Assembly (NCBI GenBank): GCA_028534125.1
Contig: CM052816.1
Coordinates: 21,640,001-21,704,000, forward strand
Direction of reading: 5' to 3'
Source of the DNA: Lama glama
Lineage: Eukaryota
Length of the DNA stretch: 64,000 bases
Part shown: one piece after another, positions 5,191 through 43,200 of the stretch
Position numbering within the stretch: the first letter of the stretch is position 1
Layout: each line of letters begins with the position of its first letter
Position numbers and translations under genes: made by a program
Notes under the pieces: model-generated
Seen by the model: the letters and a program-made list of their open reading frames with translations, nothing else
Database searches by the model: none
What the model was told of the DNA's origin: nothing

Positions 5191-5259
5191 ATGAGTGATG
5201 TAGAAGCTGGTGGTGCCACTGTCTTTCCTGATCTGGGGGCTGCAATTTGGCCTAAGAAG
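5191..5259 (+). CDS. P4HA2: P4HA2 coding exon (69 nt) MSDVEAGGATVFPDLGAAIWPKK
   Basis: ttcccag|ATGAGT...AAGAAG|gtaggt. Confidence 0.97.
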
Positions 5260-5633
5260 GTAGGTTCTGGTTCTTGTGGGTCAAAGGTTGAAGTACGGGG
5301 CTCAGACTTCATCCATGTCTCCTAGTCCCATTCCCTGGCCTGCTTGACTACTGCTTTGAGGGGCCTTAGCCCCTTCTTGCCTGAACCCTGACCTTGTGGT
5401 TTCGGCTTCTATCTGGGAAGATGGGATGGGGAGGCAGGTAGAATTCGAACATCCACACCACCCCACTGTGAAGGGTAGGTGCTTTCTGGGGAACTTCTCT
5501 ACACTGGAGTCCTAGAGCCCTTGTACATGAGATAGTGAGGGTGTTTCTGCTCAGGGAGGGCTCTGTGGTACTCAGGGTCAGATCCTTGAGCCCACTATCC
5601 AAGCATGTTGTTTGACGGGGCTTCATTATCCAG

Positions 5634-16900: not shown

Positions 16901-19305
16901 TGAAGTTTGTTTGTTTTTTTTTTGAAGAGGTTTATTAAACTTTGGTTTAGATTCTTTATTCTAAATGTGGGGAAAATAAATTTTTTGTGAAGCGTTTGGT
17001 TAAGGGAAATAATTGGTAGGAAAGAGCCATGGGTATTTGGCAAACCAAAGTTTTGTGTTTTAAAGGAACTTTTAGGTGTCTTTATGAGAAAAAGTGCTTC
17101 TATAATGTGAAGCATTACCACGCTCCCAGGAGACCTCTCTTCCTTGATATCACTGTCTTCTCTGAAGTCACCTCCTCCTTGCCCTTACTTTGTGAATCTG
17201 CAGCCACTAAGCCCTGCTAAAGTTATAGCCAAAACCCTCAATGGGCTCCCAGTTGTCATCTCGTCTGCCGTCCTGATTTCACTGGCAAGCAGCTTAAAAC
17301 TATGTGCTGTATTTACTGTTTATTTTTTGACATAGTAAATCTACCACAACTAATTTCCTGAAAACCTTGAAGTGTTCAGGGTCCTCCTAGTGGCCAAACT
17401 CAGTAGACGCTTTTGACTTTTTTTCCTTTCAGTGAGGGAAAGATCTCTTCACGATTCCTGATTCTCCTTTTTTCCCAGCCTCCCTTGCTCGCACTTTTCA
17501 ATGGCCCAGATTTCTCCTATGTATGTTGCCTGGTCCCTGTTTCCTTTTCACAATACTGCACACTGTAGGAGGAAGGATTTTCTTTACTCTCATTGCTGTA
17601 CCAACCATTTGTATGCTTATAATTTATTAAACTGCAGTCAGATCTTTCTCCTGAGTTCTCTTGTAGCCCCTTATAGCCAACTTCCTCTTGGATATTTCTA
17701 CCCGAACTTCGCACATAAATTTAGAATGGCTGTCACGGATTATTCAATGAATGATCATAAATAGGGCCGGAGGTCGGAAAAAAATACAGTTACAGTGACT
17801 ATTAATCTTTGGAGTGACAGCCCCTCTTAAGAATCTTATGAAATCAAAGACTTTTTCCCTAAAAAGGTGCACACTAATTTCTGCATATAGTTTCAGAACT
17901 TCCTAGACCTGCTACAGTTTGAAAACTCAGATCTTAGATTAGGGCTTCCTAAAGTGATGAAAAAATGAAAAGTATATTTTCATATATACATCAGATTTAG
18001 AGTTTTACCGTGAGAATACATTGTATTCCATTCTCCATTGACTAGTAACGCGAATTAATCCATCAAACTTATTTATAGGAACTTGGTCTTTGGAAGAAGA
18101 ATCGAGAATGGAAAGTTAGGCGCACAAGAAAGAGAGTTTGATTAACTGTGTAGATTGTGTATATCACAGTTCAAATTGGACCTACCTTAATCTGGTCAGA
18201 GATCAGGGTCTTCTGCAGACTTTCCAGAAAATGCTTGCTAGTGAGAGTGTAGCCTTCTCCCCTGAGGACCTGAGTACAGGTCTGAGGCCTGGTGCTTGGT
18301 AAGAGCCCTGAGTGTGGAGGCAAGAATGATAGAGAGGCAAGAGATTTCAGGTTTGTTGTTGTTTTAGCAGAATCTTTCTTCTTTGATGATTTGTAGGGTC
18401 AGTGATCAGTGATTTTCTTAGTTCCAGAGTTATTCCCTTGATTGTCAGTGAGTGCTGCTTTGAAATTGACCCCTCTCTCTCCTGAATGAAATCTGTCTCA
18501 TTTCTCTTGTTCTTGTGCCAATAGGCCAAAAGGCTCCTAAATATATATATATATTTTAATAGAGATGAGAACTAAGGAAACATTGGCCACTGTTTTTAAA
18601 AACCCTTCTCTTGGCTTCCATGAGAAGCCAAACCGATTGTATTCTTATTTTTCTTGTATCCCCTTGACTAAAACTTCTTAACTCTCCCTGGCCCTTTTTT
18701 CTCAGTCCTCAGTTATGGCTCGGTTTCTTTGTACCCATTTTGATTTCCCAGAAGGGTCATAATTTCCAAATATTGCCTATGTATTGAAAACTCTTCAGTC
18801 TTTAATTCTAATCACTTTCCACCTAGCAGCTCCAGCATTGCTTAAATGGCACACAAGTTCTTCCATCTGAATACATCCAAACTAGGTTCATTATGCTTCA
18901 TTTAAGTGGTTCCTGTTTCTGTTTTACGTGTCTTTGTGCATGGCAAAAATAACTGATCATTTCTCCTAGCTACAGACTCATGTGTGATCCCAGATTCCGT
19001 CTTCTCTCTCCACTGCTGTTAATAACTAATCATGTGAAATTTCTTTCTAACATTCATTGCTTTGTTCTCTTTTCACTGTGCCAGGAAATTAGTGATTTGT
19101 TTCCATTTTGTTTTTAGTATTTTCAGCAACTTGGAGTTTAGGTATGTACTTCCCATTTTACTTATTAGAAAATAAGCTTACTTTTTAGATTATTAACTAC
19201 ATAAAGAAAGTGTATGTACATGTTACTGCTAAACATTTAGGCAAAACCGAAATAGAGCAAAATGTTACAATGCCTCCTCTCCCCATTTTCCTTCTTTCTC
19301 TAGAG

Positions 19306-22044: not shown

Positions 22045-23103
22045 CTGGGTCCCTTGCATTTCCATATGAATTTTGGAGTTAATTTGTCAGTTTCTTCAAG
22101 AACACCAGCTGAGATTTTGATAGGGATTGTATTGAATCTGAATCAATTTGGGGAGTATTGCCAACTTAATATTAATTCTTCCAGTCCAAAGCATAGAATG
22201 TTTTTTTCATATATTTAGAGTTTTGAAAATTTCAGCAGTGTTTTGTGGTTTTCAATGTATAAGCCTTATGATTTTGTTAAATTTCTTTCTATGTAGTGTA
22301 TTCTCTTTTTTTTGAAAGGTAAAAGCTCAAAACATTTTTAAAAAATTTTTAAAAGTTTATTTTAGGAAGAGCAACTCATCAAGAGATAAAATTGTTTTAA
22401 AATTTACATATATGTACTGTTCATTGTTTCTAAGAGCAGTTTAGAACTTTAGCTTTTTAAACTTACATAGTTATCAAGAGAATAAAGGCAACAACAAAAT
22501 AAGAATAAACAGAATGCAGTAATCAATCATAAAGGACAGTCAAATGTTTTTATACATATTCAAGAAATCAGTCATCTAAGTTATAAATAATGTCATTCAT
22601 TTGTGTCTTTTTTAGATTCCACATATTAGTGATATCATATGGCATTTTTCCTTCTCTTTCTGGCTTGCTTCACTTAGAATGAAAGTCTCCATGTCCATCC
22701 ATGTTGCTGCAAATGGCATTATTTTATTCTTTTTAATGGCTGAGTAGTATTCCATTGTGTATATATACCACATCTTTATCCTGTCATCTGTTGATGGACA
22801 TTTGGGTTGTTCCCATGTCTTGGCTATTGTAAATAGTGCTGCTATGAATATTGGGATGCATGTGTCTTTTTGAATTATTTTTTTCCACATATATGCCCAG
22901 GAGTGGGATTGCTGGATCATATGATAAGTCTATTTTTAGTTTTTTAAGGAGCCTCCATATTGTCCTCCATAGTGGTGGCACCAGCTTACATGCCGTCCAA
23001 CAGTGCTGGAGGGTTCCTTTTTCTTCACACCCTCACCAGAATTTATCGTTGGTAGACTCTTTAATGATGGCCATTCTGGCTGGTGTGAGGTGATATCTCA
23101 TTG

Positions 23104-23646
23104 TGAGAAGGAAGCGCCATAAAAAGACCTAGGCAGGGCTGCTGCTCTCCTCTTAGCACCGACCGGTTCCCTGGCCCAGAGGCTCTGTCTCACTTTTTGT
23201 CTTTAAAGTGGCTAACTTATACCTAGGATTCTGTTGGTTCCCTGAGCTCACTTCTGATTGGTTATTTCCTTCACTCCTGATTGGTTATTACTCTTACTTC
23301 TGATTGGTCCACTTCCCTAACTTCTGATTGGTCCATTTGTAATACTTTATTTACATGGAGCTCACTCCTGATTGGTCTGTTTCTACAAAGCTTGTTCCTG
23401 ATTGGTCAACTTCTGTTGTACTTTATTTGCATATGATGTTGCAGAGTGTAAAACTGGCAGCCTATAAAAGGCCTGTGTAAACCTACAGACGGGGTTCAGA
23501 GCTTGAAGTGTTAATGCCTCCGGGCATGGTGGCATAATAAACCTGAGTTCTCCAACTCTCCAAATGCTGCTTGGTCTCTCGCCCGGATCCAGATTGCTGT
23601 CACAACTGAGCTGTAACACTGAGCTGTAACACATTTTTCCACAACA
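23104..23646 (+). mobile_element. Solo ERV1-class LTR with a CCAAT array, nested in L1
   Basis: TG...CA ends, perfect 4-bp TSD attg (23100-23103, 23647-23650), TATAAAA 23463-23469, AATAAA 23536-23541. Confidence 0.9.
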
Positions 23647-24381
23647 ATTGTAGTTTTGATTTGATTTTCTCTAACAGTTAGTGAGGTTGAGCATCTTTTC
23701 CTGTGCTTGTTGGCCATCTGTCTGTCTTCTTATGAGAGATGTCTGTTTAGGTCTTCTGCCCATTTTTGATTGGGTTGCTTGTTTTTTTGATATTAAGGTG
23801 TATGAGCTGTTTGTATATTTTGGAAATTATTCCCATGTCATTTGCATCATTTGCAAATATTTTCTCCCATTCTGTAGGTTGTCTTTTCGTTTGGTTGATG
23901 GTATCCTTAGCTGTGCAAAGGCTTTTAAGTTTCATTAGATCCCATTTGTTTATCTTTACTTTTATTTCCATTACTCTAGGAAAAAAATAATGCTGTGATT
24001 TATGTCTAAGAGTGCCTTTCTGCCTATGTTTTCCTCTAGGAGTTTTATAGTCTCTGGTCTTACATTTAATTATTTAATCCATTTTGTATTTAGTTTTTTA
24101 TATGATGTTAGAGAATGTTCTAATTTCAGTCTTTTACAGATAGCTGTCCAGTTTTCCCAGCACACTTATTGGAGAGACTGTCTTTTCTCCACTGTATATT
24201 CTTGCCTACTTTATCATAGATTAATTGACCATAAGTATGTGGGTTTATTTCTGAACTTGCTATCCTGTTCCATTGATCTGTGTGTCTAATTTTGTGCCAG
24301 TACCATACTGTTTTGATTACTGTAGCATTATAGTATAGTCTGAAGTCAGAGTGCATGATTCCCCCAGCTCCATTCTTCTTC

Positions 24382-24458
24382 CTTTTTTTTTTAACTTTTT
24401 TTTTATTGAGTTATAATCATTTTACAATGTTGTGTTAAATTCCAGTGAAGAGCACAAT
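24382..24458 (-). mobile_element. 77-bp extremely 5'-truncated young L1 insertion nested in L1 ORF2
   Basis: Poly-T head; 13-bp TSD tccattcttcttc (24369-24381, 24459-24471); near-identical to the L1 3' end at ~37315-37381. Confidence 0.9.
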
Positions 24459-27400
24459 TCCATTCTTCTTCTTCAAGATTGTTTTGGCTATTTGGGGTCT
24501 TTTGTATTTCCATACAAATTTTAACATTTTTTCTTACGGCTATGTGAAAAATGTCTTTGGTAATTTGATAGGGATTGCGTTGAATCTGTATATTGCCTTG
24601 GGTAGTATGGCCATTTTAACAATATTGATTCTTCCAATCCAAGAACACAGTGTGTCTTTCCATGTGTCTGTCATCTTCAATTTATTTCATCAGTGTCTTA
24701 CAGTTTTTGGAGTACAGGTCTTTTACCTCCTTGGGTAGGTTTATTACTAGATATTTTATTCTTTTTGGTGTGATGGTAAATGGTATTGTTTCCTTAATTT
24801 CTTTAACCTGTTATTTCATTGCTAGTGTATAGAAATGCAGGTGATTTCTGTATATTAATTTTGTATTCTGCAACTTTACCAAATTCATTGATGAGTTCTA
24901 GTAGTTTTCTGATTGCCTCTTTCATGTTTTCTATGTATAGTGTCATGTAGTCTGCAAATAGTGATAGTTTTACTTCTTTCTTTCCAATTTGGATTCCTTT
25001 TATTTCTTTTTTTTCCTCTGATTGCTATGGCTAGGACTTCCAAAACTATGTTGGACTTTCAAAACTATGTTGAATTAAAGTGGCAAGAGTAAGCATCCTT
25101 GTCTTGTTCTTGATCTTAGAGAAAATGCTTTCAGCTTTTCCCCATTAAGTATGATGTTAGCTGTGGGTTTGTCATATATGGCCTTTATTATGTTGAAGTA
25201 TATTCTGTCTATGCTCATTTTCTGGAGAGTTTTTATCATAAACAGATGTTGAATTTTATCAAAAGATTTTTCTGCATCTTTTGAGATGATCATATTGTTT
25301 TTATACTTCAATTTGTTAACATGGTATATCACATTGATTGATTTGCAGATATTGATATATCCTTGCATCCCTGGGATAATTGCCACTTGATCATGGTGTA
25401 TGATCCTTTTAATGCATTGTTGGAGTTGGTTTGCTAGTATTTTGTTGAGGATTTTTGCATCTATATTCGTAAGTGATATTGGCCTGTAATTTTCTTTTTT
25501 TGTGATATCTTTGCTTTTGGTTTCAGGGTGATGATGGCCTTATAGAGTGAGTTCAGAAGTCTTCCTTCCTCTGCAATTTTTGGGAATAGTTTCGGGAGGA
25601 TGGATGTGAACTTGTCTCTAAATGTTTGGTAGAATTCAGCTGTGAAGCCATCTAGTTCTGGACTTCTGTTTGTTGGGAGTTTTCAAAATGCTGATTGAAT
25701 TTCAGTACTGGTAATTGGTCTATTAATATTGTCTATTTCTTCCTTATTCAGTCTTGGCAAATTGTACCTTTGTAAGAAATTGTCCATTTCTTCTACGTTG
25801 TCCTTTTTGTTGGTGTATAGTTGCTCATAGTAGCCTCTTATCTCTTGTATTTCTCTGATGTCAATGTGACCTCCTTTTTCATTTCTGATATTATTAATTT
25901 GGTCTCTCTCCCTTTTTTCTTTGATGAGTCTGACTAAAGGCTTATCAATTTTATCTTTTCAGGGAATCAGATTTTAGTTTCATCAATCTTTTATATTTTT
26001 TAGTCTCTATTTCATTTATTTCTGGTCTAATCTTTATGATTTCTTTTCTTCTACTAACTTTGGGTTTTGTTTGTTCTTCTTTCTCTAACTGCTTTAGGTG
26101 TAAGGTAGGTTGTTTACTTGAGATTTTTCTTATTTCCTGAGGTAGGCTTGCATCACTATAAACTTCCCTCTGAGAACTACTTTTGCTGTGTCCCGGAGGT
26201 TTTGGATTATTGTGTTTTCATTTTCATTTGTGTCAATGTATTTTTTTATTTCCTCTTTGATTTCTTGAGTGATCCATTGGTTATTTAGTAGCATATTGTT
26301 TAGCCTCCACGTGTTTGCAGTTTTTGCAATTTTTTGTCTTGTAATTGATTTCTAACCTTATAGCATTGTGGTCAGAAAAGATGCTTGGTATGATCTCAGT
26401 TTTCTTAAATTTACTGAGGCTAGCTTTGTGTGCCAGCTTGTGGTCAATTCTGGAGAATGTTCCATGTGCTCTTGAGAAGAATGTGTATTCTGTTATTTTT
26501 GGATGGAATGCTCAATAGATATTAAGTCCATCTGGTCTAATGTGTTATTTAGGGCCTGTATTTCCTTATTGATTTTCTGACTGGATGATCTGTCCATTGA
26601 TGTAAGTAGGGTGTTAAGGTCCCCTACTATTCTGTTATTGTCAGTTTCTCTTATGTCTGTTAACAGTTGCCTTATATAATTAGGTGCTCCTGTGTTGGGT
26701 GCATATATATTTATGATTGTTATATCCTCTTCTTGGATTGATCCCTTAAGCATTATGTCATGTCCTTCTTTGTCTCTTGTAACATTCTTTATTTTAAAAT
26801 TTGTTTTGTCCAATATAAGTATTGCTGCGCCAGCATTCCTTTGGTTTCCATTCGCATGGAATATCGTTTTCCATCCCCTTTCAACCTGCCTGTGTTTCTA
26901 GCTCTGAAGTGGGTCTCTTGTAGACAGCATATATATGTATGGGTCATGTTTTTGTATCCATGCAACCAGTCTATGTCTTTTGGTTGGAGTGTTTAATCCA
27001 TTTACATTTAAAGTAATTATTGATATGTGTGTTCTTATCATTTTGTCAATTGTTTTGGGTTTGCTTTTATAGGCCTTTATTTTTTCTCTTCCTTCTTTTT
27101 GTTCTCTTTTCTTGTGGCTTGATGACTAGAGAAGGTCCTTTAACATTTGTTGTAAAGCTGGTTTGGTGGTGCTGAATTCTTTTAGCATTTGTTTATCTGT
27201 GAAGCTTTTGATTTCTCCATCAAGTCTAAATGAGAGTCTTGCTGGATAGAGTATCTTAAGCTTTTTCCTTTCACACTTTAAATATATCTTGCCACTCCCT
27301 CTGAGCTGTAGAGTTTCTGCTGAAAAATCAGCTGATAACCTTGTGGGAGTCCTGTTGTATGTTATTTGTTGCTTTTCTCTTGCTGATTTTAATATTTTAT

Positions 27401-29569
27401 TCTTATCCTTAATTTTTGTCAATTTGATGACTGTGTTCATTGGTGTGTTCCTCTTTGGGTTGATCCTATGTGGAACTCTCTGCACTTCCTGGACTTGGGT
27501 GACTGTTTCCTTTCCCAAGTTGGGTAAGTTTTCAGTGATTATCTCTCAAGATTTTTTCAGGTCCTTTCTGTCTCTCTTCTCTTTCTGGGACCCCTGTAAT
27601 GCGAATATTAGAGCACTTCATGTTGTCCCAGAGTTCTCTTAGACTATCCTCATTACTTTTCATTCATTTTCCTTTTCTCTGTTCTGCAATAGTGATTTCC
27701 ATTAATCTGTCTTCTAGCTTACTGATCCATTCTTCTGTTTCATTTAGTCTGTTCTTGCTTCCTTCTAGTTTGTTATTCACTTCAGAAATTTTATTTCAAC
27801 TTTAGGTATTGTTTATATTTTGCAACTCTGCTAAAATTTTGCTCTGTGCATCTATACTCCTCTTGAGTTTTCTAAATATCTTCACCATCATTACTCTGAA
27901 CTGTCTCAGATAAATTGCCTATCTCCTTATCATTTATTTCTTCTTCTGGGATTTTATCTTGTGCCTTGGCCTGGAAGATATTTTCTGTCACCTCATATTG
28001 TCTGTCTTTCTGTTTGTATTTTTAGGTAGGTTAGTTATGTTTCTCGACCTTGGAGAAGTGGCCCTCTGTGGGAGACATCCTTTGTGTCCCAGCAGTGCAC
28101 TTCTCTCGTCACACAAGGGCCAGGGTCCAGCCAGTCCCAGTGTAGAGTCTGGCCTGTGTTTGTGGATTCCTTCCACAGGCTTCGGGATTGTTGTTTTCTT
28201 ATCTCTGCTATCTGCCCCCTGGTGGATGAGGCTGAACAGGAGGCTTATGCAGGTTTCCTGGAAGGAGGAGTTGGTGCCTGCCCACTGCTGGATGAAGCTT
28301 GATCCTGGACCTCTGGTGGGTAGGGCTGTGTCTAGAGCCCTTTGTGGCTTAGGAAGACTGATGATGAGTGTGGTGGTGTTCCCACCCTGTATGTTGTTTG
28401 GCCTGAGGCTTCCTTACAGGCTGTTGGGTGGGTTTAGGTCTTGGTGCTAATGATCCGATCAAGATGTCAGTCTCCAGGAAAGCTCATGTAGATGAACAGT
28501 CCTGGAATGTCCACCACCAGCTTTTATGTCCCCTGGGTGAGCCACAGCTGTCCCCCACATCCCAGGAGACCTTCCAAAACCAGCAGTCAGGCCCGACCCA
28601 GGTTCCTATGAAATCACTGCCTCTGCAACTTGAACCTGGAGCATGTGAGTTTCTATGTACGCTTCCCAAGAGAATGAGGTCTCTTTTTCCCCTAGTCCTG
28701 TGGGGCTCCTGGAGCTAAGCCCTGCTGGCCTTCAAAACCAGATGTCTTGGGGTCTCCTCCACCTCCCAATGCTGGAAACTCAGGCTGGGGAGCTTAGAAC
28801 TCTCACTTCTATGGGAGGGCCTCTGCGACTTAACTATTCAGCTTGTGGGTTGCCCACCTGCGGGGTATGCAGCCCTATTATATCATGAACACGCTCCTCC
28901 TACCATCCTACTATGATTCCCTCTTTATGTCTCTAGTTGAAAAAGACCTTTTTTCTAGGTTCCAGTCTTTTTTTCAATGGTTGTTTGGCAGTCAGTTGTG
29001 GTTTTGTTGTAGTCGAGAGGAGAGGCAAGCTCATGGTCCTACCACTCTACCAGCTTGAATGGAGGGATATAATCTTTATATACAGCAGAAGTTCTTACTT
29101 GTCAGTATTTTATTTGGACATTTTCTCTTTTCTGTAGAATAGATAATATCTATTGGTATACCTCCAACCTCAATGATTCTGCCTCTGTCATCTCCATTTT
29201 CATATTAAGTCCATCTAGTGAAGTTTTAAACTCAGACATTATATTTTTCAATTCAATAATTTTCAATAGATTCTTTATTCCTATTATTATTAACTACCTC
29301 TTTTCTGAGATTTCTCTTATTATTAATTGTATTATTTTTCTTTACATTCTTGCATGTGGTTATAATAACTGCTTTAAAATCTTTGCTAATTCCAACATCT
29401 GTTTTATCTTTAGATTGGTTTCATTTGTGTCTTTTCTCTAGAGAATATGTCACATGTTTCTGGTTCTCCATTTGTCAAGTAGTTTTTTTATTATTATATA
29501 CTGGCTTCTGCAAATATAATAATGTTGGGCCTCTAGATTCTATTATAATCTTTTGAAGAATGTTGTTGT

Positions 29570-37533: not shown

Positions 37534-38033
37534 NNNNNNNNNNNNNNNNNNNNNNNNNNNNNNNNNNNNNNNNNNNNNNNNNNNNNNNNNNNNNNNNNNN
37601 NNNNNNNNNNNNNNNNNNNNNNNNNNNNNNNNNNNNNNNNNNNNNNNNNNNNNNNNNNNNNNNNNNNNNNNNNNNNNNNNNNNNNNNNNNNNNNNNNNNN
37701 NNNNNNNNNNNNNNNNNNNNNNNNNNNNNNNNNNNNNNNNNNNNNNNNNNNNNNNNNNNNNNNNNNNNNNNNNNNNNNNNNNNNNNNNNNNNNNNNNNNN
37801 NNNNNNNNNNNNNNNNNNNNNNNNNNNNNNNNNNNNNNNNNNNNNNNNNNNNNNNNNNNNNNNNNNNNNNNNNNNNNNNNNNNNNNNNNNNNNNNNNNNN
37901 NNNNNNNNNNNNNNNNNNNNNNNNNNNNNNNNNNNNNNNNNNNNNNNNNNNNNNNNNNNNNNNNNNNNNNNNNNNNNNNNNNNNNNNNNNNNNNNNNNNN
38001 NNNNNNNNNNNNNNNNNNNNNNNNNNNNNNNNN
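37534..38033. other. Assembly gap, exactly 500 N
   Basis: Run of N. Confidence 1.
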
Positions 38034-39380
38034 TCTTCCCCTCCTCCAGAACTCGACTTTTATTACCTAAAATATATTTATTTGCTCAATTCTAGTATAC
38101 AAATAAAGTAGTTTCAGAGTTGCAAACTCAAACTCCTTTGAGAAACATTTTACCAACTATACTGCAGTACAGTATTTGTATACAGTTCATTTTATCTTCA
38201 GCACTATAGAGTCCAGTCAAAATATTGTTTTCTAGAATTACTTCTGTCAGCTCCTTTCTTCTCAGTCTCTTTCAGTACAGTTACATCGTTCATTTGTAAT
38301 ATAGTTACTAAGTATATATACTCATAAATGTAAGTTTGACTAAGTTGTATTAATTTGTTTGTTGTCTGAATTTCATTTTCCTTCCCATATTCTGGTTGTT
38401 GTTTCTAAATTTTCATATGGTAAAATTTATTCTTTGTAGTGTACCATTCTGTGATCTTTGATAGATGTGTAGGGTCATGCCTTCACCACCATTCCATAGA
38501 ACAGTTCCATCACCCCAGCAATTCCCTGATCATTTCTCTTGAGAGTCAGCCATTCTTCCCAACATCGGCTATTGTTGGAAACCACTGATTTCTGTTTTCT
38601 ATCCCTATACCTTTGCCTTTTCCAGGGATTTGTATAAATGGAGTTGTACAGAATATACCCTTTTGAGTCTGGCTTCTTTTGCTTAGTGTAATGCATTTGG
38701 TATTCATCCATGTTGTATCAGGAGTTTGTTCCTTTTAATTAATCAGTAGTATTCCATTGTATGGCTGTACCACCATTTGTCTATTAATTCAATGATTGAA
38801 GGGTATATGATTTGTTTCCATTTTTTGGTGATTATGAACAAAACCATTATGTTAGTGTGTAGGTCTTTGTATGAACATTAGTTTTCATCTCTTAGATAAA
38901 TACCAATAAGCAGGATCGCTGAGTCATATTATTAATGTTGTATATTTATTTTAAAAACTGCCCAAACGGTTTTCCAAAATGATTTTGCATTTCTGTAAGC
39001 AACACATAAGAGTTCCAGTTATTCCACATCCTTTCTAGCACTTAATATTATCATTTTATTTAGGCCATGATAGGTGTGTAGTGGTCTCACCTTCCACTTT
39101 CTTGGTATTTAATAATACTGAATATTGTTACATGCTTATTGCCTTCTGTATATTTTCTTTGGTGAAATGTCTGCTCAACTCTTTTGCCTATTGAAAAAAT
39201 TAGGTTGTTTATTTTATTGAGTTTATAGAATTCTGTATATATTTTGGATAGAAATTTTTATTATATATGTATTTTACAAGTGTTTTTACCCAGTATATAC
39301 CTTGTCTGATTTATCATTTTATTATGGATCATGATTTTTGTGTTAGATTATCTAAGAAATTTTTGCCTAATCAAAGGTCA

Positions 39381-39460
39381 TGAAAAATTAGAGTGTTCAA
39401 AGCAGGCCTGAGCTGCCTGGATACCACAGTTAGAAATAATGGAATGCATTTACTTTGAAA
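39381..39460 (+). pseudogene. Short 18S rRNA-derived insertion, circularly permuted
   Basis: tgaaaaattagagtgttcaaagcaggcctgagctgcctggataccacagttagaaataatggaat matches mammalian 18S rRNA; followed by gcatttactttgaaa, which precedes it in 18S; flanked by the direct repeat aaaggtca. Confidence 0.88.
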
Positions 39461-39927
39461 GGTCACAAGATACCCCATGTATTTCCCCCTAGAAATCTTA
39501 TGATGTTAGATGTTACATTGATGTCTATGATATATTTGGATCCAGTTTTATATATAGTGTTAGGTAAGGATTGAGGCTTTTTTTTTCTTATCGATTACCA
39601 ATTTTTCCAGTGTCATTTATTGAAAAGACTTATTTGTCCACTAATTTGCCTTTAAAACTTTATTGAAATAAATTAATTACAGATATATAGGTCTATTTCT
39701 GGTCTCTCTATTTCTTTCCATTGATCTGTATGTTTTTACTTTTCACTTATACCACAGTGTCATGATTAGCTTTATAGTAAATCTTTGGAATCAGGTAATG
39801 TGGAGTGTCCAACTTTGTTCTGTTTTGTCAAAATTGTCTCAGCTAGCTTAGTTGTTTCATTTTGTTTTGTTTTCCATATAAAGAGAACCAGCTTGTTGAT
39901 TTCTATAAATGAAATTGTGATGAGACT

Positions 39928-40324: not shown

Positions 40325-40795
40325 TGATATAGTGGATTGTATAGTGGCTCTCCAAAAAAGATAAGTCATGTCTTAACCCCCAGAACCTGTGAATGTGACC
40401 TTCTTTGGAAAAAGAGTCTTTGCAAATATAATTAAACTGAGAGTCTCAAGATGAGAACATCCTAGATTATCCAGTGAGTCCTAAATCCAATGACAAGTGT
40501 CCTTATAAGAGACAGAAGAGAATAAGATACAACAAAGGACAAGACCATGTAAAGACAGAGGCAGAGATTGGAATGATGAAGACAATGAAGCCCAGGGGTG
40601 CCTGAAGCCACCAGAAGCTAGAAGAGGCAAGGACGGATTCTCCCCTAGAGCCTTTGGAGGATATGCTGTCTGCTGACACCTTGGTTTTAGATGGCAAGCT
40701 TCCAGGATTGTGAGAGAATAAATTTCTGTTATTTTAAGCTACCCATTTTATGATCATTTGTTATGAAAACACATATGTATTAGGAAGCTAATACT
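40325..40795 (+). mobile_element. MaLR LTR (MLT1C-like) nested in L1
   Basis: cccagaacctgtgaatgtgaccttctttggaaaaagagtctttgca...ccaccagaagctagaagaggcaagg...gagaataaatttctgttattttaagc. Confidence 0.85.
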
Positions 40796-42422: not shown

Positions 42423-43200
42423 TTTTTTTTAATTGAAGTACAATCAGTTGCAATGTGTCAGTTTCTGGTGTACAGCACAATATTCCAGTCACATTGTCCC
42501 ATATACACATATGTTCATTTTCATATTCTTTTTCATTAAAGGTTATTACAAGATGCTGAACATAATTCCATGTGCTATACAGAAGAAATCTGCTTTTATC
42601 TATTTTTATATATAATGGCTAACATTGGCAAATCTCAAATCTCAGATTTATCCCTTCCCACTCCCTTCCCCTGGTAACCATAAGATCATTTACTATGTCT
42701 GCAAGTTTGTTTCCATTTTGTAGATGAGTCATAGCGTCCTTTTGTTTGTTTGTTTGTTTCAGATCCACATATGAGTGATATCATATGGTATTTTTCTTTC
42801 TCCTTCTGGCTTACTTCACTCAGATGACGATCTCTAGGTACATCCATGTTGCTGCAAATGGCATTATTTTATTCTTTTCTTTGGCTAAGTAGTATTCCAT
42901 TGTATAAATATACCACAACTTCTTAATCCAGTCATCTGTCAATGGACATTTAGGTTGGTTCCATGTCTTGGCTATTGTAAATAGTGCTGCTGTGAACATC
43001 GGGGTGTTTGTACCTTTTCAAATGTGGAGTTTTCTTGGATATATGCCCAGGAATGGGATTGCTGGATCATATGCTAAGTCTGTTTTTAGTTTTTGGAGGA
43101 ATCTCCATACTGTTTTCCATAATGGCTACACCAAACTACACTCCCATCAACAGTATAGGAGGGTTCCCTTTTCTCCATACCCCATCCAGCATTTATCTTT
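42423..43200 (-). mobile_element. Younger 5'-truncated L1 3' end nested in older L1
   Basis: Poly-T head; close similarity to 22600-23050 (gttgctgcaaatggcattattttattc). Confidence 0.85.

Follow-up and report, generated by a model that had tools for sequence, protein, structure and literature searches.

Features of the locus

A 77-nt insert (39381-39457) lies between two copies of the octamer AAAGGTCA within a fragment of an old L1 element, in a window (the whole stretch of DNA analysed) of 64,000 nt. The insert is made up of two blocks of 18S rRNA sequence in swapped order, whose positions are given in Table 1 together with those of the neighbouring features. The first-pass annotation of this DNA had described a repeat-flanked insert inside an old L1, and its coordinates proved to be exact, with AAAGGTCA at 39373-39380 and again at 39458-39465. 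When a 77-nt stretch was placed at random in the window, an exact 8-nt repeat was present at both ends (±3 nt at each) in 655 out of 198,011 placements (0.33%).

Table 1. Features of the insertion site, numbered from the first letter of the window
Feature	Position	Strand	Description
8-nt direct repeat, left copy (AAAGGTCA)	39373..39380	+	putative target-site duplication
Block B	39381..39445	+	TG, five A, then 18S rRNA nt 810-867 (sense)
Permutation junction	39445..39446	+	18S nt 867 joined to nt 792
Block A	39446..39457	+	18S rRNA nt 792-803; native position upstream of block B
8-nt direct repeat, right copy (AAAGGTCA)	39458..39465	+	opening AAA shared with the beginning of the native six-A run (putative priming overlap)
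Host L1 fragment, old, diverged	38591..39837 (approximate)	-	limits from matches to other L1 copies of the window

The window is mammalian in content, and other parts of it also contain L1 sequence. A long L1 with broken frames occupies 22600-28400 on the minus strand, with matches to RVT_1 (25078-25539) and to the L1 ORF1 domains (27129-27545), and several older L1 fragments are found between 29900 and 50100. An assembly gap of 500 N (37534-38033) is located just after the apparent 3' end of a young repeat, which is also present near 42426-42740 and is presumably of a type that suggests a camelid host. At 40330-40745 old L1 sequence is interrupted by a segment of higher GC content, which we take to resemble an ancient MaLR-type solo LTR. 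Finally, a short frame in the plus strand (5230-5290), in our view resembling an exon of a prolyl 4-hydroxylase alpha subunit, gave no match in Pfam.

Identity of the insert with 18S rRNA

In a scan of 161 nt, the Rfam model of eukaryotic SSU rRNA (RF01960) matched the insert from 39383, at model position 761, with an E value of 4.6e-4 and 20.6 bits, a score that falls below the gathering score of 50 set for this model. The match was absent from a 5-kb scan and from a scan of the whole window at the gathering threshold. Native 18S sequences for comparison were provided by 26 eukaryotic contigs (L001 to L026), which had been found with a 24-nt motif of the insert inside prokaryote assemblies. 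Six of these contaminating contigs, with different sequences, belong to one assembly of Virgibacillus profundi, and L010 is chimeric, with unrelated sequence upstream of the motif. A BLAST search against L016 aligned 39383-39445 to 325-266 (E 5e-8) and 39449-39460 to 335-324, with 12 identities out of 12; in native order the second match lies directly upstream of the first one, and taken alone it has an E value of 0.063. Two HSPs in swapped order, which the first-pass annotation had called for as a check of its claim, were therefore obtained on one and the same native locus. The assignment of block B is based on the Rfam match, on the alignment to L016 and on oligo and probe sequences printed in papers, and its opening TG and A run match 18S nt 802-809 with one A fewer.

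That the last block of the insert belongs before the first, as had been stated in that annotation, is borne out by the native eukaryotic 18S loci and by mammalian primers. A script found the 9-mer at 39449-39457 directly upstream of the A run, and exact, in 14 of the 26 native loci; L002 also carries it, at the end of the contig and beyond the 14 counted by the script, and in 10 other loci it differs by one base. A profile of the upstream block, from which L010 and the loci with <16 nt upstream were left out, ranked the insert site second among 126,944 positions of the window. The top site of the profile (18002-18016) has no 18S sequence alongside and was taken as a chance match.

The letters of mammalian 18S rRNA were taken from published oligos covering nt 777-806 and 830-852, namely the primers printed for human (PMC10174586) and dog (PMC3608535), two antisense oligos (supplement of PMC6887119) and a dog probe; nt 810-829 and 855-867 were compared only with Rfam and with the non-mammalian loci. 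Block A is identical to the human and dog primers, the dog probe and the two antisense oligos at 11 of 12 positions, the remaining one being a CpG decay. The chance of a match of at least 11/12 is 4.7e-6 for a single place, 3e-4 when 65 offsets are allowed, and 0.017 over the whole 18S rRNA on both strands. With respect to the mammalian oligos, all four CpGs are decayed in the insert (18S nt 794, 831, 836 and 848), in agreement with the four decays previously noted. The other differences are a C to T change at 852, a G to A change near 855 (with respect to Rfam and the native loci) and an A run shorter by one A. No second piece of 18S was found in the window by BLAST against the 26 native loci, mammalian 18S was found in 0 viral contigs, and a mammal-type motif in 0 metagenome contigs.

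Insertion into an older L1

When the insert and one copy of the repeat are excised, alignment of the flanks with all three paralogous L1 copies of the window shows no large gap, and each copy has a single homologue of the octamer. A local L1 origin of block A was rejected, the best match to it in the paralogous L1s or in the flanks (39200-39380 and 39466-39766) being 9/12. The paralogous copies thus stand in for an orthologous empty site and, as far as sequence comparison goes, point to an insertion into an older L1. The host fragment is 61-69% identical to the other copies in the window, and one of its paralogues adjoins an L1 whose frames match the RVT_1 and L1 ORF1 domains. The host L1 differs by about 35% from its paralogues and the insert by about 9% from 18S rRNA, so that the insert is younger than its host; a rough estimate of its age would be tens of millions of years.

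Since all four CpGs are decayed, the insert represents an old genomic copy and not a chimera formed with an rRNA read. Moreover, 24 sequencing runs were compared, none of them a raw-read RNA run, and 14 contain at least half of the 87 words sampled from 39000-39900. Eleven of the 14 carry a flag as a possible source, and the three unflagged runs, from two studies, contain 0.98-1.00 of the words, which would imply coverage of the junctions. Six runs with word shares of 0.13-0.38 give no evidence either way. In view of the word shares and of the CpG decay, an assembly artefact is very unlikely, and the feature is confirmed as real and well supported.

Structure of the junctions

At the internal junction, nt 867/792, there is no flush microhomology and no letter beyond those that native 18S rRNA can supply. 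The trinucleotide GAA is present on both sides of it (before nt 792 and at 864-866), out of register by one T. A switch at flush microhomology in GAA was rejected, as the T at 867 would then have been lost. At the 3' junction, the native six-A run begins with the same AAA that opens the right repeat. The two blocks complete exactly one 76-nt round to within 0-5 nt, as a single template would explain with no coincidence.

The 5' side may be read in two ways. With a duplication of 8 nt, the TG and the As would be templated, and the copy would overrun its start point by 2-5 nt. If the two bases after the octamer were instead an ancestral CpG that decayed oppositely in the two copies (TG on the left, CA on the right), the duplication would be of 11 nt and the copy would correspond to one round within about 1 base. 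At the position following the octamer, TG is present in one of the paralogous L1 copies and not in the two others. The microhomology previously claimed at both junctions is thus retained for AAA at the 3' side; at the 5' side the right repeat copy continues with CAAG, as against the tgaa of the claim, which would require that these letters were formerly present in the target.

The nick site, TC/AAAGG, compared with TT/AAAA or TT/WAAAAWW, shows one mismatch before the nick and has three A after it. The insert derives from a cellular RNA and, as the first-pass annotation had noted, has no oligo(A) tail; it ends in TTTG against the right repeat.

Correspondence with a structural domain

The oligo positions 777-794 and 830-848 are mutually consistent and place the copied unit at 18S nt 792-867, that is, 76 nt; rabbit 18S served as the reference for read alignment in PMC6887119, and the oligo numbering may be offset by a few bases. 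The limits given there for the helices of expansion segment ES6S are 740-793 for B, 795-864 for C-D and 865-910 for E. The unit thus comprises the hairpin domain ES6S C-D with a margin of 3 nt at either end, and the six-A run (804-809) is the point at which it has been opened; the match was established post hoc and with helix limits from this one paper. A fragment of about 75 nt had been proposed before, and its match to a structural domain had not been noted; by the numbering used here, this equality of the unit with ES6S C-D and its 3-nt margins, opened at the A run, is what appears to be new in our analysis.

The domain was further considered in an alignment of 19 of the 26 native loci, from which four short sequences, two duplicates and L010 had been dropped. 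A hairpin with the A run unpaired, the model being drawn from one of the aligned native sequences, was compatible with 91.9% of 285 cells over the 19 sequences, compared with 33-55% for slid controls. Compensatory changes were found in 0 of its 15 pairs among these sequences, and the unpaired state of the A run is a property of a model without covariation support. Only 7 of the 19 native fragments have at least 3.5 expected pairs between their ends. With RNAalifold on a longer region, the last ~8 nt of the fragment paired downstream and the closing helix was not recovered.

Comparison with known retrocopies

The insert resembles the tailless retropseudogenes (Noll et al. 2015, PMC5322556; Kojima 2010, PMC2912911) in being a short copy of a non-polyadenylated RNA, with no A tail and with a target-site duplication, here an exact 8-nt repeat with one homologous copy in each of the three paralogous L1s. 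It also shares with them a 3' end that falls within the RNA, at an A-rich stretch matching the target (PMC5322556). According to that study, priming of tailless copies takes place at single-stranded, A-rich sites whose complementarity to the target extends over 2-18 nt, and the human ones include two 5'-truncated cases from 18S rRNA, of 51 and 56 nt. The AAA shared with the six-A run conforms to such a priming site and, by analogy, the overlap at the 3' junction would fit the internal-priming signature of these elements. Tailless retropseudogenes are described in PMC5322556 only as truncated copies, and they are colinear and 3'-truncated; unlike them, the insert has its blocks swapped, with sequence from downstream of the priming site placed in front. 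That paper's main text gave 0 matches for "circular", "permut" and "template switch".

A genomic non-colinear junction with few or no terminal adenosines is also found in the pseudogenes derived from circRNAs (Dong et al. 2016, PMC4897178), a source in which an alternative is already put forward, namely that a structured open RNA with close ends is reverse transcribed across them. Those pseudogenes come from back-spliced exons of mRNA genes. In contrast, the junction of the insert (nt 867/792) joins parts of an 18S parent, a domain of 76 nt from Pol I rRNA that lacks a splice junction and for which a circular parent is not known; the duplication of the insert is clean. A third related group is that of the chimeras between LINE-1 and noncoding RNAs (U6, U3, 28S; bioRxiv 2025.02.02.635956), for which RtcB ligation or template switching during target-primed reverse transcription has been considered. 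In these the RNA is joined to L1, while our insert is joined to itself and its host L1 is older and unrelated; the main text of that preprint gave 0 matches for "18S", "circular" and "permut". A literature search by title, with subscription journals largely outside its scope, found no prior rotated rRNA retrocopy or small rRNA circle. The route, which had been called unusual, is less so than was implied, as both tailless copies (PMC5322556) and permuted circRNA pseudogenes (PMC4897178) have been published.

Proposed mechanism

We consider it probable (about 0.7) that the insert was made by the L1 reverse transcriptase in one round of copying of a single, probably excised, rRNA hairpin domain. 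A nuclease would release the ES6S C-D hairpin, and the L1 endonuclease would nick the strand opposite TC/AAAG. The freed TTT end would pair with the internal six-A run (nt 804-809) and prime synthesis as in tailless retropseudogenes. The enzyme would then copy nt 803 to 792 and pass to nt 867 of the same molecule; copying would return to the A run, stop at its start point and join the upstream end of the target, and a staggered second nick would yield the duplication. The return of the copy to its own starting point argues for a single molecule, whether circular or not. RNA-templated passage from the 5' end to the 3' end of the template was one of three routes put forward in the first-pass annotation, and it is supported by the duplication, by the A-run overlap at the 3' junction and by the meeting of the blocks after one round. 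Of the three routes, which differ in likelihood, the rDNA microcircle gives the worst fit.

For the passage from nt 792 to nt 867, we favour, at somewhat less than even odds, a template jump from end to end of a linear fragment over a covalent circle. Prior ligation into a covalent circle is a more tentative proposal, and the two cannot be separated from DNA alone. The blunt-looking junction is not proof of ligation, because the junction observed would also result if one A were added and paired with U867. In vitro, ORF2p performs template jumping and non-templated addition, and it can be primed with 5-nt primers (PMC10830420). The broader proposal that mammalian germ cells make a covalently closed 76-nt circle of ES6S C-D, through nuclease excision and RtcB-type joining, and that L1 can retrotranspose small splice-independent circles of this kind, should be regarded as possible but doubtful. 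The motif of the 867/792 junction was found in 0 metagenome contigs, which is a weak test since the native mammal-type motif was found in 0 as well.

What counts most against the L1 route is the duplication of 8 nt, since L1 duplications peak at 14-16 nt and trans-mobilised copies have not been associated with short duplications (PMC2912911). Also against it are a priming overlap of 3 nt, below the 4-6 bp cited in PMC10830420, and the imperfect nick site. Once integrated, the copy was probably methylated and decayed neutrally, and it is probably now an inert fossil without function.

Alternative explanations

L1 reverse transcription could also have switched between two RNAs, or across a helix junction of intact 18S rRNA or pre-rRNA, with no excised fragment involved. 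ORF2p makes concatemers in vitro from a second incoming template (PMC10830420), chimeras of 28S rRNA and L1 formed by ligation or switching have been described (bioRxiv 2025.02.02.635956), and the GAA just before nt 792 together with that at 864-866 provides a near-microhomology. However, the match is out of register by one T that only block B supplies, and a switch between two molecules gives no reason for stopping within 0-5 nt of the priming site, so that we judge this explanation unlikely.

The capture of sequence during repair of a double-strand break, by patchwork synthesis from rRNA or rDNA at a staggered break and without the L1 endonuclease, is less likely still. Polymerase theta is an example of an enzyme capable of patchwork templated synthesis, and the short duplication, the imperfect nick site and the 3-nt overlap would all be in line with such an event. 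Inserts of this class are usually accompanied by deletions and by nearby templates, but here the target is intact in comparison with its paralogues, the overlap at the 3' end consists of an A run, and the unit follows a structural domain of the RNA.

A 76-bp extrachromosomal microcircle of rDNA, opened at the A run and then integrated, would give an exact permutation of one round, as any circle opened at one point does. Against this, a length of 76 bp does not exceed the size needed for ready closure of a double-stranded DNA circle, and DNA circles usually close at a direct repeat, whereas nt 867 and 792 were joined without flush homology. DNA would have no reason to follow an RNA domain, and integration alone gives no target duplication; we therefore hold this origin to be highly improbable.

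Finally, a chance match of block A, or an assembly chimera of the locus with a read derived from rRNA, can hardly be credited: block A alone has a BLAST E value of 0.063, site 18002 outscores it on the profile, one other site is within one mismatch of it and the 500-N gap is 1.3 kb away, but the chance of a match in the right place is at most 3e-4, decay of 4/4 CpGs is unlike any rRNA read, and three unflagged runs from two studies contain 0.98-1.00 of the sampled words, with the coverage of the junctions that this would entail.

Significance

The weight of the finding is limited in that it concerns a single, old and inert insertion with no sign of function. Copying of one hairpin domain by L1, our preferred reading, nevertheless makes predictions, namely that the 867/792 junction should occur in 18S-derived RNA and that other rotated retrocopies should exist whose ends follow RNA domains. 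Small rRNA circles are usually discarded by circRNA pipelines, and a positive result in RNA would show that they occur naturally. Either outcome would bear on the question of whether non-colinear inserts made by L1 arise from ligation of RNA or from template jumping in vivo. If the circle reading is true, the locus would be the fossil of such a molecule, and there may be a hidden class of rotated retrocopies of structured RNA domains that has been missed by colinear searches.
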